DNA of 63,912 bases, filler included, from Albugo candida (lineage: Eukaryota), in the NCBI GenBank assembly GCA_040437565.1. It is 7 parts of 7 records of this genome, joined end to end, with 100 filler letters (N's around TTAATTAATTAA, not from the genome) between each part and the next. Parts side by side here need not be neighbours in the genome. Positions count along the whole stretch, not along the records: positions 48,041 to 56,892 come from JBDOQK010000122.1; 6 more parts are not named here. One strand, 5' to 3'. The notes beneath the pieces are model-generated. The model was not told where the DNA came from. It worked only from the letters and a program-made list of their open reading frames with translations, and did not search any database. Below, in pieces: positions 51,124 to 63,608 of the stretch (position 1 is the first letter of the stretch; each line of letters begins with the position of its first letter). Position numbers and translations under genes: made by a program.

Positions 51124-51579
51124 TCATACGTGCAAGTCGATGTGCCGATTGGGAAGCAAGCAAGCCTCTTCAAATCCATGTAGAATATCGACCGCGATTC
51201 CAGCCGCGGTCAGCTTCTCCACTCCTCTACAGCGCACAAAGTTGGTGGGCTCTTTTACACCAATTACAACTCGCTTGACATGCGCGCGAATGCAGTTATC
51301 GACGCAGGGTGTGTTTCCCGAAAGACGTTCACTGCACGGTTCCATTGTAGTGTACAAGGTCGCGTCAGTTGCGATAAAATCAAGCTTGATCAAAGCGACT
51401 TGTTCCGCGTGTGCATTGCCGCTTAGCTCACGTGAATAACCGGTTGATAGTAGTGAGTTGTTGCGCACAATGACACAGCCCACGCAGTAAGCGTTTGGAA
51501 TTGGAATCGATTTGTTTGCTTCGGAAATCGCTAGTGACATAAAGCGCTCATCGAGTGTGTTCTGAGCATCGGACGGCAT
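51124..51579 (-). CDS. Cytidine-deaminase-fold protein, RIB2/RibD-type pyrimidine deaminase
   Basis: HAEQ and TMEPCSERLSGNTPC zinc motifs, AYCVGCVIV. The start could alternatively be 51633. Confidence 0.85.
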   Translation of the reverse strand: MPSDAQNTLDERFMSLAISEANKSIPIPNAYCVGCVIVRNNSLLSTGYSRELSGNAHAEQVALIKLDFIATDATLYTTMEPCSERLSGNTPCVDNCIRAHVKRVVIGVKEPTNFVRCRGVEKLTAAGIAVDILHGFEEACLLPNRHIDLHV

Positions 51580-52210
51580 TTTGATGGCTCTATCTGCTTT
51601 TGTAGGATTATCAAATGGCGAAGGATATAGCATTAAGGGAGTTAATTATGTTTATCTGACTCACTTTGTCGCACGATATTTATCGCTCTTTTAGAGTGTC
51701 ATTTCCATAGCTTCTTGCTTTTTATGGAGGCGTTCAATTGGTTTGTAAGAAATAGGTACTTTGGACTCAATACGGAATTAACGAGCAGCTTCAAACACAT
51801 GTACTATAAGCTCGTTCCTATTTGAGTTGATACCGAGGCCCATCCATCATAAATTTTGTCGTTATTGTACAAGTACGTCGTCTTTATAAACTATCAAATA
51901 CGCCACGACATTATAAAGACAAATTCCGGTCAAAAACTCTCAGTATTTGACACGAAAGGGCTTCTTTACGATACATCTTTTCCTGCCGACTACTATCCCT
52001 GCTGTTGACAATGTCAATCCAGACGCAATCTCCAATACTGTCGCGCTACACGCCGATGTATCTGCATCCCTACACAAAGCACTGCTCGATAGACCATTTT
52101 TGACTTCAATACAATTTCTGCATTTGTCATGCATAAATACCGGTACAAAGTCGATTACTGCTGTGAAGCTCCTACAAAATGTGATACAAAAATCTCTCTT
52201 TGTGTAAACA

Positions 52211-53576
52211 ATGCGATTAACCAGTGATGTGATATTGCAAGCGCAAGTTTGTATCAACCCTTTACGGGAACGAGAACTATCGCTACGTGGTACGCTCGAC
52301 TCCCAATCTTCTACCACTCAAAGCATAAACATAACGCGTCACTTAGGCTACAAAGCACCTGCAATCGAAAATCTCGGCGTCACTAAAGTCTCACAAATAA
52401 ATGATCCCTCACCATCTCTTCTTAACACGTGCACAATCTTCCGCTTAGGACGGATTCGACTGCATCGATCTCTGTGACAATGAGATAAAAAAGCTCGAGA
52501 ATTTCCCACGTTTCAGACGATTGCGAATGTTATTAATGCACACCAATCATATTTCCAGGATCCAGCCACACTTGGAGGAATCGATTGGAAATCTCCAAGT
52601 GTTAATACTCACCAACAACAAAATTGTCAATTTGACAGAAATCGATTCCCTTATTGGATTTCGAAAGTTAGATATCCTTTCACCATTGCATTCGTTCATT
52701 GTATACATAACCATCGTCCTCAGTTCCTTAATTTATTCGTTTGTGCATACATACTCTTATATTACTGGGGAATCCAGTCACCAAACGCAAATTCTATCGG
52801 GAGTATGTCATCCACAAGCTACCACAATTGCGAGTATTGGACTATGCAAAGATCCGACCAGCGGTAAGAGTGTCATTTAAAGATTTTTGGTTGATTTTCG
52901 TATGCAGGAACGTGATGCAGCAACACGATTTTTTAGCTCGGAAATCGGGCAAACTTTTGAAAAAGAGATGCGAGAGGAACCAGGCGATACAAAATCATCC
53001 AAGGTACACAGCTCAAATGGATCGAGTGTTGATTGATTCATTTATATGCCGCTATCACAGCCGGAAGAATTGACGGTACTTGCAGCAAATGAGCCCAAAC
53101 GCTCGGTGAAACTCCATGCGAATGTGTCTACTACCAGCACAGTCACTATCACCACGGTAGAAACGATTCAGAGCACCGAGTCGATGAAGATGGTCGATGA
53201 GGCCAATGGCACAATTTGCGATACAAAGGATGTCAAAATGGAGCAAGTAAGAAATGATAGTTTCCATAAAAAAAAGTCTCATCGGTCGATCGTGTAGATT
53301 GATACATCCGTTTCGGTGACACAAACATCACAGGAAACTGAGGCCGTCCAACGCACACCGACGAGAAAAACACGTAATGCCAAGTCGAGAAACGACAGTA
53401 ATGTGGAAATGATGGATGCAAGTCCTTCCGAGATGGTGTACACACCATCCAAACCGATTGAGATGATGACAGTTCCGATTCTTCGAAAAGAATTGAAGAA
53501 ATTAAATCTCCCTACAACCGGGCTCAAGGCGGAACTTGTCCAGCGGCTACGAGAAGTGCTTGATCGACAGAATTGA
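52211..53576 (+). CDS. SNRPA1: U2 snRNP protein A' with a C-terminal SAP domain, multi-exon
   Basis: MRLT...NPLRERELSLRG, AIENLGVT, DNEIKKLENFP, GNPV...YREYVI..LPQLRVLD. The last exon encodes MTVPILRKELKKLNLPTTGLKAELVQRL. Confidence 0.9.
52672..52750 (+). other. U12-type AT-AC intron
   Basis: Donor ATATCCTTT, branch site TTCCTTAAT (52724-52732), acceptor AC. Removal restores RKLD-TLILLGNPV. Confidence 0.88.
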
Positions 53577-53830
53577 TGGCGATGGACTCTAAGGTTCATT
53601 TTTCGACACATTTTGTGGCTAAAGACGGCTCAACAAGTTGCACATATTTTCGCTCTCATTGAGACTTTTTAATTTTCTTCTGTAAGACGATTCTACTTTA
53701 CGAGTCAGCTTCATAGGCCTTTGTTACCTGAATTCGATGCTCACTGTAGCCGTGTGACCTTCATACTGCGGTGTCCGGACAGAGCCGTAGCCAAGGGAAT
53801 GTGATCAAAACCAATACACCGCTCGCTGCA

Positions 53831-57514: not shown

Positions 57515-60500
57515 ATGCCAAGACAGCGACAAAATTTAAGTGATGCCGAAAGGCGTAAAAAGAAAAGAGAGTACGATAGATTAAGAAGAGCTCGTATTAG
57601 AGCTGAACAACAACAACCTCAAACCCGTAATTCAAACGAGGAAAGAAGAAATTACATGAGAGGTTACATGGCGCAAAGACGTGCAGGATCTTCACAAATA
57701 AGAGAAAATGAAGCTGAAACTAGACGAGAGAATAGACAGACAAGAATTGAAGTCGATACTGATTTTTTAGAAGCTGAAGCTAATAGATCTAGATCTAACA
57801 GAAGTGTTACTACTCCTGAAATTGCGAATGACAATGGAGAGAATGTGAGTATTATATTAATTTTGTTCAAACCATTGCGATTGCTAATTAATAAATTTGG
57901 GCAGGAGCGTTTACAATTTGAAATCAAGGCAAGAGAAGGCCCAACAATAGTGTGTGGATGCTGCGCATGTTTATATTTTAATAAAGACATGAGCATAGTT
58001 ACTGCGGAACAACTTACTGCTAAAGGCATTGGTAATTATATTAAAACTCAGTTTATAAAATTAAATACTCACGTAAATTTAAATTACAGAGCTTGATATG
58101 ATTGAGAAAGTTTTCTGGCCTGTGTCAGAAGGAATCCTTGGACCTACGAATAATAAGCTTTGTAATACTTGCAAAAGAACATTGTTTGATTCCAAAAAAT
58201 TACCGACTATTGCATTAGTAAACGGACTTCACTTTCCAAATGTAGATCCAATTATAAATGATTTAACTAGACTTGAAGAAAGACTTGTAGCAGGAAGACA
58301 TGTTTTTCAGTCTATTTGGACAATGCAAGGAACCAGTGGTCAATATCGCAGTAAGGGAGGAATTGTGAATGTTCCTGTTAACGTAGATACGACAGTTTCC
58401 GCTTTGCCTAGAAAATTAAATGATTCCTGTATAGTCCATGTTGCCTTAGCTAGACGTCTTATATATTTAAAAGATTATATAAAAGGAAATATCGACGTAT
58501 CAAAAGTATGGCGTGCAGCTAATTATTTGACTAGCAAAAGTCTGTATTTAAAATATAATATTGAGATTGACTGCGAATGGATGAATACTGTTGCAGCTGA
58601 GATTGAGGGAGAGCAAGAATCATCTAATCACCTGGATGAAGAGGTTAGAGAATCTGATAATTTAGATGAAAATGTTGAAGTAAATGATGAAAATGTGGAA
58701 GTAAATGACGAAAACGTGGAAGATGAGGTTAATTCTGGTGCTAGAGAGTCAGTGGTTGTTAATGATCACGAAGCTTTAAGAATGGCTCCCGGCGAAGGAA
58801 GGGTCCCCTTGTCAATTTTACAAGACAAGCACAGTGACTTTTTGTCTTTTCCTAAGATTTATTGTGGTGAACTATTAAATGGTATTGATTCTATGTCATA
58901 TGGCAATTATGCTAAGTCTGTCGCTCGAAGATTTGACAGAAGAGGGGTAGAGAGAGTAGATTACCTGTTGTATATGGATCGAAAATACCAGCTGATAAAG
59001 ACATGTGGTAATATAAGTACCGTAATGAGAAAAAGAAAGAAGCCCAATACTTTTAATAGCAATAACCAAGATCAGCCTTTTAGAGCTTCGGATTTTTCCG
59101 ATTTAAATAATATCAACATGTTTTTCACCAAAGATCAAGCATATAAAATCTTTTCTGGTGTACGCTCCTCTACTGAGTATTGGAAAAACCAAAAAAAGAA
59201 TGTTTTAGCTATGGTTCGTCAATTTGGTATCCCTACTATTTTCTTGACATTGTCTGCAGCTGAGACAAAATGGAATGAATTATTGGTAATGCTGAAAAAG
59301 CTAGTCGATGGAGTTACCATTTCTGAAGAACAAGCTGAAGCTCTTTCATCTAAAGAAAAATCCTACCTTCTTCAAAGTGATCCAGTCACATGTGCTAGAT
59401 ATTTCGACTATAGATTTCGACTTTTAAAAAAGACATTTCACTCAAAAAACGGGCCATTTGGATCTCACGTTCCTGAACATTATTATTTTCGTGTGGAATT
59501 TCAACATAGAGGTTCACCTCACATACATGGGTTGTTTTGGTTAAAAAATGCTCCTAATATTAGTTCATCTACTCATCCAGCTTCTGCAGAACAAGTAGTT
59601 AATTTTGTTGATTCGATTATAAGCTGTAGAAAAGAATGGGATGGTAGTTCTCATCACCGGGATAGTAGTTCAAGTAATGATGACACTTGGAAAGAGTTGA
59701 TTAAAAGACAATATCATAAACATACTAGATCTTGTCTTAGAATTAAGAATAATCAGCAATTTTGTCGTTTCAATATACCATTTTTTCCAATGGACAAAAC
59801 TAGAGCTTTAGCACCCATTGCAGAGGGTGAAGAAAGGTTCACAGGAAAACCATTTGAATTCCATAAGACAAATTATAAAAGAATCAAGGAATACTTGCAT
59901 AATAACTGTGAAACAATGAGTGAGGGAAACATGACTTTTGATGAATTTTTAATTAATGTAGGAATTACAGATATGAAATATTATATTCATGCTATCCAAT
60001 GTAGCTTAAAAACAAACAAAGTGATTATAAAACGAAACCCCAATGAAGTGATGATCAATAATTATAACACAAAAATATTTTCTATGTTCAAATCAAATAT
60101 GGATATTCAGTTCGTAATAGATCCTTATGCATGCTGCTCCTACATTGTGGATTATATAAACAAAGCTGATAAAGGAATGAGCAAGGCACTAGAAGAATCT
60201 TATAACAAATGTGTAGAAAATAATAATAGTAGCGCTTTTGACACTTTAAGATCTTTATCAGCTACATACTACAACGCGTGTGAGATATCAGCTCAAGAAG
60301 CTTCTTATAATATATTGCAACTAAGAATGGCTGAATCAAGTTGTGTTTCTTATTTTATACCAACTGCTAAACCTGAAGATCGTATGCATATACTAAAAAG
60401 TCATGAAGAACTGTTAAAATTAAATGCTGATTCAACAGATTGTTTTGAACCTAATTTGATAGACCATTATATTAATCGGCCAGACGAATTAGAGAGTATA

Positions 60501-63500
60501 AATTTGGCTCAATTTACAGCATATTACCAGTACTCTAAGAAAAAACCAAGAAGTAGGTCTAGAAACAGTAATAATGCTACCTTTGATGAAAACATAAATG
60601 AAGATGATGCTAACAACCAAGACGAATATGGCGACATTTTTGAAGATCAAGGTGCAGCATATCAACGTGGTGGTTTAACCGGTCAAGTGTTTGAATTAAA
60701 AAACAATGATGGTTTTATTAAAAGAAGAGGAGCATCAAAAGTAATCCGTTATTTTAAGTACGATTTATCTGAAGAAAATGAAGAAGACTATTATCGTACT
60801 TTAATTATGTTGTATTTAAGTTGGAGGAATGAAGAAGAAGAGCTTTTACATGGACATTGTAAAGAAGTGTACAACACCAATAAGTTGCATGTAGATTCTA
60901 ATAGAAAAGAATTTAATCAGCTTGACGAAGATGCTTTAGAATCCTTCATTAGTCAAATAATGGGAAATAGAGAAGAAGAAGAAGTTAATAACAATGACGA
61001 TGAAGAAGAAGGCCAAGAAGAAGCTAGAGTTAGAAGAACTGCTCCTGGCGACGATGCTAATGATTTTCGTAGATATACTATGGATGTTAATGACTCTGAC
61101 CAAGGAGACTATCATCGTAATGTTGATTTAAATGAAGAATTAGGTGGCAATACCAAAAATAGCACTTACTTTGAGAAAATCCCTGTACCAAATAAGCTTT
61201 CCAAGACTGAATATAATGACTTAATGGCATCTTTAAATGTAAAACAACGTTTATATATTTCGCACGTTATTAATCATATAAGATATAACAGAGACAATGT
61301 TGATATTAGTGATAATGTTGCTGTTGCTAATAATTGGATAACTCCTTTTTCTCCCATCTATCATTTCGTAACTGGTGGTGCTGGTACTGGCAAAAGCTTG
61401 CTCATAAGAGCTTTACACCAATCTTTGATGCGTGAATTTGATAACAACAATAGAGATAGAGATCTTGAAAAACCTTCCGTTATTCTAACTGCATTTACAG
61501 GAAGAGCTGCCTTCAATATCTTTGGTTTAACAATCCATAGTGCTTTTAATTTCCCAGTTTCTCAAGCAGGTAAAAACAGCTATAACACTTTATCAGCAAG
61601 TTTTGCTCAGACTATGTCTGTTGCTCTGAATGACCTTAAAGTAATCATCATTGATGAAATAAGTATGGTTAGTGATACGATGTTTGGATTTATTGATAAA
61701 AGACTTCGGGACATATTCAATCCTAGTATTCCTTTTGGTGGTAGAACAGTAATTGTAGTTGGTGATTTTTTGCAGCTTCCTCCTGTAGGTGCACATTCTC
61801 TCTACACACTTGCTCATGAAAAGAACGGTGATCCCTTCGTATCTTTGTTTAATGAGAATGCCTTTTTCAGTCTTTTCAAAGTACACCGACTTAATGAAAT
61901 TATGAGGCAAAGGGATGACAAACTGTTTGCCGAAGCTTTAAATAGAATGGCTATTGGTATGATGACTCAAGCTGATATCAATTTGTTTCAATCTCGAGTT
62001 CTTGTTTTAAATGAAGATGATATGAAAGAAGTAGTTAGTGGTAGAAAAGCTGTCTCTATTTCAGATGACGATTCAAACATTGATGATGCTAATACACGTA
62101 CTATTCATTTGTTTTTCACTAATAATGATGTACAACGATTTAATCGTACTATTTTGCTCTCTATGAATACTGAAGGTGCTGTTTCAAATGCATACGATAT
62201 AGTTCAAGGAAGTCATTTAAACCAACAAAAAATTGACTCTTTACTGAACTATTTTAAAACTACTGATGGAATTACAAATACTATATGTTTGCCTAGAGTA
62301 CTGTTACTTAAAATTGATGCAAGATACATGATCACCACAAATGTCAATACATCTGATGGATTAGTCAATGGTATAACTGGGGTTCTTAAAAGAATTGATT
62401 ATGGGCAGATAAATACAAATGATAGTAATAATCCTGAAGCATCCTCATCCAGCACTACTGAATCAGAAAGAAAACCACTACGTATATGGTTATTGTTTGA
62501 TGATTTAATGGTAGGAAAAATAGCTAGAAAATCACAAGATTACTTAAGACGTAATTTACACATTGATGAAAACTGGACTATGATGGAACCTCGTACAATG
62601 AATATAAATTCACATTCGTATAAATCCAATCTCAAGCTAATGAGAACACAGTTCCCAATTTTTCCAGCTGAAGCATTGACAGTCCACAAGTCACAAGGTA
62701 GCACTTTTCCCAAAGTCACCGTGTATGATGTAGCTAACAAAAGAATGTCACGATCTCTCTTATACGTTGCTTGTTCTAGAGCTACTACTGCTGCTGGTCT
62801 AACACTAATTTGTAAAGAAAACAAGTTTCAACCTCCTGTCTCTTTGTTCGCAAATGATTCTTCCTTGCGCAGAGAAATTGAAAGACAGCCAACTGTCAAA
62901 TTAATCACCTGCTTTGAGCATCTACTCAAGAATAGTTCAAGTGAATTCAAATTGCAAATTATATCACATAATGTACAGAGTTTACGTGCTCATATTGATC
63001 AAATTAAGAAAGACCAAGTATATCTCTCATCAAATATTATATTGTTACAAGAAACTTGGACCTTAGATAATGATGAGAACTATGAAATAGACAGCTTCAA
63101 GTTAGTGACTAGAGTTAATGCGCCTGGATCTCAGCCTCGAGCTTTAGGATCATGTATATATGTAAAAAATGATTTGGTTACTCGATTATCTTCTACAGAT
63201 CACAAACTCTTTCAGCAAGATACTAATTCAGTTAGTGTTTCCTTGATCACTTTATCAAATGATTTGTACTGCAGCATCTATGCAACTCCAAATTGTTCTT
63301 CTCAACTTTTAATAGATGCTTTACAATTTGTCATTGAACAACACGAATTTGAAAACATTACTATTGCAGGTGATTTTAACACTGATTTTAAGACCTCATC
63401 AAGAAAAACAGATGCTATGGTTGAATATTTCGCATCTTTCGGAATTAAAAGTACATTAAGTGAAACAATCTCTTCTACGACATCTGCAAATACGTTTATC

Positions 63501-63608
63501 GATAATATATTCTCTTCCGAAGCTACAGTTGAATCTGGAAGGTACATTTCGTTTACTAGCTTTCATGAGCCTTTATGGTTAAAAATAGACAAGTCGCTAC
63601 CTTCTTAA
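57515..63608 (+). CDS. Helentron/Helitron2 RepHel transposase: HUH Rep, PIF1 helicase and C-terminal APE endonuclease (~1990 aa; predicted introns 57845-57904 and 58032-58089)
   Basis: CGCC/CNTC zinc motif, FLTLSA, VEFQHRGSPHIHGLFW, YIVDYINK, GGAGTGKS, IIDEISMV, GDFLQLPPV and TVHKSQG. The EEP domain shows HNVQSL, LQETW, GDFN, IDNIF and SFHEPL. Confidence 0.95.

Follow-up and report, generated by a model that had tools for sequence, protein, structure and literature searches.

We found that a gene for a spliceosomal protein in Albugo candida is interrupted by an intron of the minor class. The window, that is, the whole stretch of DNA that was analysed, is 63,912 nt long. We are confident that its positions 52672 to 52750 are a genuine U12-type (minor-spliceosome) AT-AC intron, the third of six in a single U2A'/SNRPA1-like gene. 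It is most likely an old oomycete intron, and its splicing is probably constitutive.

The host gene occupies positions 52211 to 53576 on the plus strand and has seven exons and six introns; its product has 338 amino acids. The first in-frame ATG past a stop is at 52211, and it gives the N-terminus MRLT as in the homologues. The five GT-AG introns of the gene are 44 to 61 nt long. The features are as follows, where X1 and X5 are public sequencing runs whose contigs are described below.

52211 to 52289, plus strand: exon 1; X1 and X5 RNA contigs confirm its junction
52290 to 52346, plus strand: intron 1, GT-AG, 57 nt; seen in X1 and X5
52347 to 52387, plus strand: exon 2; supported by RNA contigs
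52388 to 52448, plus strand: intron 2, GT-AG, 61 nt; seen in X1 and X5
52449 to 52671, plus strand: exon 3, leucine-rich repeats, LRR_9 positions 42-115 (Pfam, E 2e-22)
52672 to 52750, plus strand: intron 3, U12-type AT-AC, 79 nt, phase 1; supported by motifs and by an X1 contig running from 52671 to 52751
52672 to 52680, plus strand: U12-type 5' splice site ATATCCTTT; RTATCCTTT occurs nowhere else in the window
52724 to 52732, plus strand: U12-type branch-site motif TTCCTTAAT, a motif match
52749 to 52750, plus strand: terminal AC, the first AC downstream of the branch motif
52751 to 52863, plus strand: exon 4, with LRR_9 positions 118-151 from its second residue (Pfam, E 6e-11)
52864 to 52907, plus strand: intron 4, GT-AG, 44 nt; seen in X1 and X5
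52908 to 53003, plus strand: exon 5; supported by RNA contigs
53004 to 53060, plus strand: intron 5, GT-AG, 57 nt; seen in X1 and X5
53061 to 53246, plus strand: exon 6; supported by RNA contigs
53247 to 53297, plus strand: intron 6, GT-AG, 51 nt; seen in X1 and X5
53298 to 53576, plus strand: exon 7 and stop codon, with a C-terminal SAP domain (PF02037, E 4.8e-12)

Exon 3, used as the query in a protein search, found 42 matches. The named ones are all from oomycetes, 62-72% identical over exon 3, and several carry the name U2 small nuclear ribonucleoprotein A'. Judged by the LRR_9 domain in exons 3 and 4 and by these best matches, the host gene is a U2A'/SNRPA1 homologue, which is what the preliminary description had taken it to be. 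Table 1 of PMC3584512, which concerns human proteins, assigns U2A' to the 17S U2 snRNP, and it is absent there from the 18S U11/U12 snRNP. U2A' is further defined by its binding to U2B'' and to stem-loop IV of U2 snRNA. The oomycete proteins differ from U2A'/SNRPA1 in their additional C-terminal SAP domain; PF02037 is given for 37 of the 42 matches, and the remaining five are short fragments. To our knowledge, a SAP domain is not part of the architecture of human or yeast U2A'. The presence of SAP on U2A' may represent an oomycete-wide fusion.

The U12-type branch-site consensus is of the TCCTTRAY type, and TTCCTTAAT, located near the 3' end of the intron, is a full motif of this type. Its candidate branch adenosines, 52730 and 52731, are 20 and 19 nt from the last intron base. 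The 5' splice site ATATCCTTT is an exact match to the U12-type 5' rule, /RTATCCTT, which was taken from the legend of Table 2 in PMC2846911; a U12-type assignment in that paper requires a branch-site score. The 79-nt intron, its donor and the branch motif about 19 nt from the AC, all of which had been proposed beforehand, were found at the positions listed above. The distance of 19-20 nt is above the optimum of 11-13 nt that is quoted for human U12 introns between branch site and 3' splice site (PMC3584512); the departure is a mild one. The intron is in phase 1, with the D codon divided as G/AT, in agreement with the phase bias that minor introns show (PMC10639083). The AT-AC pair 52672/52750 yields GFRKLDTLILLGNPVTKRKFY, and in the spliced reading GFRKLD is followed directly by TLILLGNPV.

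AT-AC ends alone are no proof of U12 dependence, and U2-dependent AT-AC introns are cited in PMC3584512. Intron 3 might be one of these rare introns, removed by the major spliceosome, and the U2A' mRNA would then be independent of the minor spliceosome. The branch-to-3' splice site distance beyond the human optimum would fit such an origin, and an Rfam scan of the 63,912-nt window returned no family (0) and, with that, no match to minor snRNAs. However, the 5' end agrees with RTATCCTT throughout, and a full TCCTTRAY-type branch motif comes after it, whereas the five other introns of the gene are ordinary GT-AG introns with quite different 5' sequences. Related oomycetes, Phytophthora and Hyaloperonospora, also have both minor snRNAs and U12 introns (PMC2396436, PMC2846911). 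We consider removal by the major spliceosome very unlikely.

The protein itself calls for this junction. The AT-AC splice joins LRR_9 positions 115 and 118 of the Pfam model without a gap, supplying exactly two residues, and reproduces the block KLDTL..GNPV, which is intact in 35 of 45 fetched relatives. When the intron is left in place, the frame stays open across the 79 nt, departs from the conserved frame and meets a stop codon at 52878-52880. We enumerated the GT-AG, GC-AG and AT-AC pairs near the site after which the frame remains open throughout exon 4, and obtained 67 in-frame, stop-free candidates, among them 13 GT-AG pairs and no GC-AG pair (0). None of the 13 in-frame GT-AG candidates around the AT-AC site keeps the LLGNPV repeat, so that the earlier statement that no GT-AG alternative restores it holds. 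Since no junction other than 52671/52751 leaves the leucine-rich-repeat domain in frame and free of gaps, the intron must be removed.

Four public runs (X1, X5, X6 and X9) were aligned to positions 52100-53700; they are assembled contigs and inform on presence only. In X1, a 4387-nt contig with a depth of 206 is collinear with the genome on both flanks, has no loose ends and lacks all six introns. It joins 52671 to 52751, skipping 79 nt with AT..AC ends; the joint is ambiguous by 3 letters, and canonical ends come from the unshifted cut only. The RNA label of X1 was a guess, and the run counts as RNA here on account of its lack of all six introns. X5, from a second study, confirms the five GT-AG introns, and its contig starts at 52751, short of the AT-AC junction. 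In X6, intron 4 is retained and positions 52667-52791 are without a contig. X9, a DNA run, contains the whole unspliced stretch in one piece with six introns kept. The AT-AC junction is bridged in one of the three RNA-labelled runs (X1), X5 and X6 being without coverage there. The joining of 52671 to 52751, which the preliminary description had expected in transcripts, is seen in this one X1 contig; with the full AT-AC signature and an RNA contig cut exactly between these two bases, its assignment of the intron to the U12 type was borne out.

The runs also show small differences between strains. X6 has a TT insertion in intron 4 (52875), X1 and X9 have C>T at 53182 and C>A at 53234, and X9 has C>A at 53265. 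In view of these small variants, the runs come from close, non-identical isolates. The X1 contig extends past both ends of 52100-53700, and neighbouring transcripts may overlap.

The same precise removal of five GT-AG introns by the X1 contig, collinear on both flanks, makes it hard to regard its AT-AC junction as an artefact, be it reverse-transcriptase template switching or mis-assembly at the 3-nt repeat ATA or a 79-bp deletion in the strain. The three letters that fit both sides of the joint would suit such an artefact, and the junction comes from a single contig of a single study. The skipped segment, however, has complete U12-type signals at its start and end, and only this junction restores the repeat that is conserved in 35 of the 45 relatives. 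The 79 nt are also present in the DNA run X9 and in P0045, an unspliced ORF of a 98%-identical strain. We regard an artefact as exceedingly improbable.

Motif frequencies were also considered. RTATCCTTT is observed once in the window against 1.39 expected. The combined pattern of donor, branch site and AC/AG occurs once, compared with a mean of 0.117 per resampled window, and among 1000 first-order resamples, 111 contain it at least once. With one observed against 1.39 expected and with 111 of 1000 resamples positive, motif statistics were dropped as stand-alone evidence. What goes beyond chance is that the sole match lies exactly on the junction that the protein requires, and that RNA uses this junction.

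The closest named protein, P0041, is a hypothetical protein of Albugo candida with 280 amino acids, 100% identical where the two overlap, which assigns the window to A. candida or a very close relative. It starts at an internal methionine of exon 3 and is without the first 66 residues, which are encoded by exons 1 and 2 and the start of exon 3. P0041 runs past the donor and reads KLD ILSPLHSFIVYITIVL ITKRKFY, which fits the GT-AG candidate 52723/52777; translated intron sequence stands in place of the conserved repeat. The X1 contig contradicts 52723/52777, and P0041 is wrong at this junction. It had been predicted that gene finders would mis-model this junction, and the public model does so, against the RNA contig. 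P0045 shows the same read-through. A search with the read-through ORF found P0045 only and no second Albugo species.

The distribution of the intron was compared on proteins and ORFs of the 45 relatives. Five of them (P0010, P0017, P0019, P0043 and P0044) are unspliced single-ORF fragments on contigs of 1.3-20.7 kb. These fragments start in read-through of intron 2 and stop a few residues into intron 4; their ends read P-H/R and then V-R or V-S, which is a GT donor read through. All five are uninterrupted across KLDTL..NPV. Among named sequences, they are nearest to those of Globisporangium polare (90% and 82%), [Pythium] brassicae (87%), Phytophthora pseudosyringae (95%) and P. boehmeriae (80%). 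Going by these ORFs, exons 3 and 4 are fused in such Globisporangium/Pythium/Phytophthora-like genomes; the AT-AC intron is absent and its neighbours are kept.

Ten of the 45 proteins lack an intact block here:

Albugo: P0041 and P0045
Aphanomyces astaci: five models, of which three go on D-I-L-S-L and two delete the block
Thraustotheca clavata: one model, which goes on D-I-L-F
Lagenidium giganteum: one model, which goes on D-I-R-F
One partial fragment, which ends at a contig end

Read through, G followed by ATATCCTTTC gives D-I-L-S and G followed by ATATCCTTTT gives D-I-L-F. D-I-L-S or D-I-L-F is found in four models (three of A. astaci and one of Thraustotheca), as would be the case if G followed by ATATCCTT were read through. 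These breaks at the same residue are suggestive, and the intron is probably present in Aphanomyces, Thraustotheca and Lagenidium; for the Saprolegniales, we infer its presence from such mis-modelled proteins. In Saprolegnia parasitica (P0034) and Aphanomyces stellatus (P0035), the models show no break, which is compatible with an intron or with none. A search for short Saprolegniales ORFs running into the intron found none, and gave instead two further Pythium- or Phytophthora-like ORFs that are intron-less. At the protein level, comparison of the position among orthologues, a check that the preliminary description had also named, gave a divided answer: breaks that point to the intron in Aphanomyces, Thraustotheca and Lagenidium, and its absence from Globisporangium/Pythium/Phytophthora-like ORFs.

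The simplest reading of this distribution suggests that the intron was ancestral in oomycetes, was kept in Albugo and, on indirect grounds, in the Saprolegniales, and was lost precisely in the Pythium-Phytophthora line, Globisporangium included. The survey in PMC10639083, in which Phytophthora has few minor introns and Saprolegnia dozens, agrees with an ancestral intron that was later lost. A metagenome scan gave four U2A' loci of non-oomycete eukaryotes, 46-54% identical, and all four read through the site; some are possibly transcripts, and the four say little on the age of the intron. Two of the fetched proteins, P0031 (Pythium oligandrum, 658 aa) and P0036 (Lagenidium giganteum, 595 aa), have a PF03798 membrane-protein domain ahead of U2A', and are probably neighbouring genes merged in annotation.

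By analogy with characterised U12 introns (PMC3584512), the U11/U12 di-snRNP would recognise ATATCCTTT and TTCCTTAAT jointly. One of the two adenosines of the branch motif would then attack the 5' splice site, and the 3' splice site would be the first AC that follows the motif. On the same analogy, we infer a need for U11, U12, U4atac and U6atac. Splicing is most likely constitutive.

The intron could alternatively act as a regulatory valve, in which slow minor splicing or retention, together with a premature stop, ties the supply of U2A' and the U2 snRNP to how active the minor spliceosome is. Retention would lead to the stop codon at 52878-52880, with loss of the remainder of the protein, and minor introns have already been proposed to be rate-limiting switches (PMC3728624). 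Mouse Snrpa1 is reported to answer a shortage of snRNPs by intron retention (PMC5224493), although the intron concerned is not described as U12-type. The apparent keeping of the intron in several oomycete lines would also be in line with a function. On the other hand, contigs inform on presence and not on the degree of retention, and a USSE-like tandem of U12-type 5' splice sites is absent, RTATCCTTT occurring once in the window. Pythium- and Phytophthora-like genomes, in which minor splicing is still reported, have lost the intron cleanly, so it is dispensable there, and the pan-eukaryotic survey in PMC10639083 argues for a largely neutral evolution of minor introns. We think that a valve of this kind is unlikely.

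It is also conceivable that Albugo and the Saprolegniales have held on to the ancestral intron over hundreds of millions of years because its slow removal, limited by the minor spliceosome, sets the supply of a U2 core protein, and that Pythium and Phytophthora, in which minor splicing is nearly abolished, had to lose it precisely. If this were true, the two spliceosomes would be directly linked at the level of expression. We hold it to be quite improbable, and constitutive removal of an old U12-type intron remains our preferred reading.

U12 introns are already known in oomycetes, and the Albugo U2A' intron is an addition to them and a modest surprise. In Phytophthora, U12-type AT-AC introns are present in a peptidyl-prolyl isomerase gene and others, and a GT-AG one in the gene for ribosomal protein L31 (Russell et al. 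2006, as cited in PMC2846911). They resemble the present intron in class, in their occurrence in oomycetes, in the RTATCCTT rule and the branch motif, and in being very few per genome, but they are in other host genes and in another genus. PMC2846911 gives one more AT-AC intron each in P. sojae and P. infestans, unnamed in its main text. These are unlikely to be the U2A' intron, because Phytophthora-like ORFs cross the site intron-less. In our literature search, with supplementary tables outside its scope, neither a U12 intron in SNRPA1 nor minor splicing in Albugo was found described, and PMC5010894, on intron evolution in oomycetes, mentions neither U12 nor AT-AC.

A comparison can also be made with genes of the splicing machinery that are expressed by way of the minor spliceosome (PMC3584512, PMC3728624), such as U11-48K and U11/U12-65K, whose USSE elements provide minor-spliceosome feedback (PMC3584512). 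The U2A' gene of Albugo would share this dependence, but it has no USSE-like tandem 5' splice site, and its product is a major-spliceosome-specific protein, not a minor-spliceosome protein. A minor-type intron in such a gene is a curiosity. A specialist would not be very surprised by the host, since U12 introns favour 'information-processing' genes, RNA processing included (PMC3584512). With the present analysis, a minor-type intron in the obligate plant parasite Albugo is supported at the transcript level, and the public gene model P0041 is corrected. The intron may also be a simple marker for the loss of minor introns across oomycetes: Albugo has it, the Saprolegniales probably have it, and Pythium- and Phytophthora-like genomes have lost it.

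Two other features of the window were observed. On the minus strand, an ORF at 51124-51645 resembles cytidine/deoxycytidylate deaminases (Inv-AAD, dCMP_cyt_deam_1); it is arranged head-to-head with the U2A' gene, about 560 nt upstream of the start of the latter. On the plus strand, positions 58083-63608 form a single open frame of 1841 amino acids with matches to Helitron_like_N, DUF6570 and a PIF1-like helicase. The end of this frame has a weak match to an endonuclease/reverse-transcriptase family (27.9 bits against a cut-off of 27.4, with no single stretch passing). From these domain matches, the product is apparently an intact Helitron-type transposon protein.
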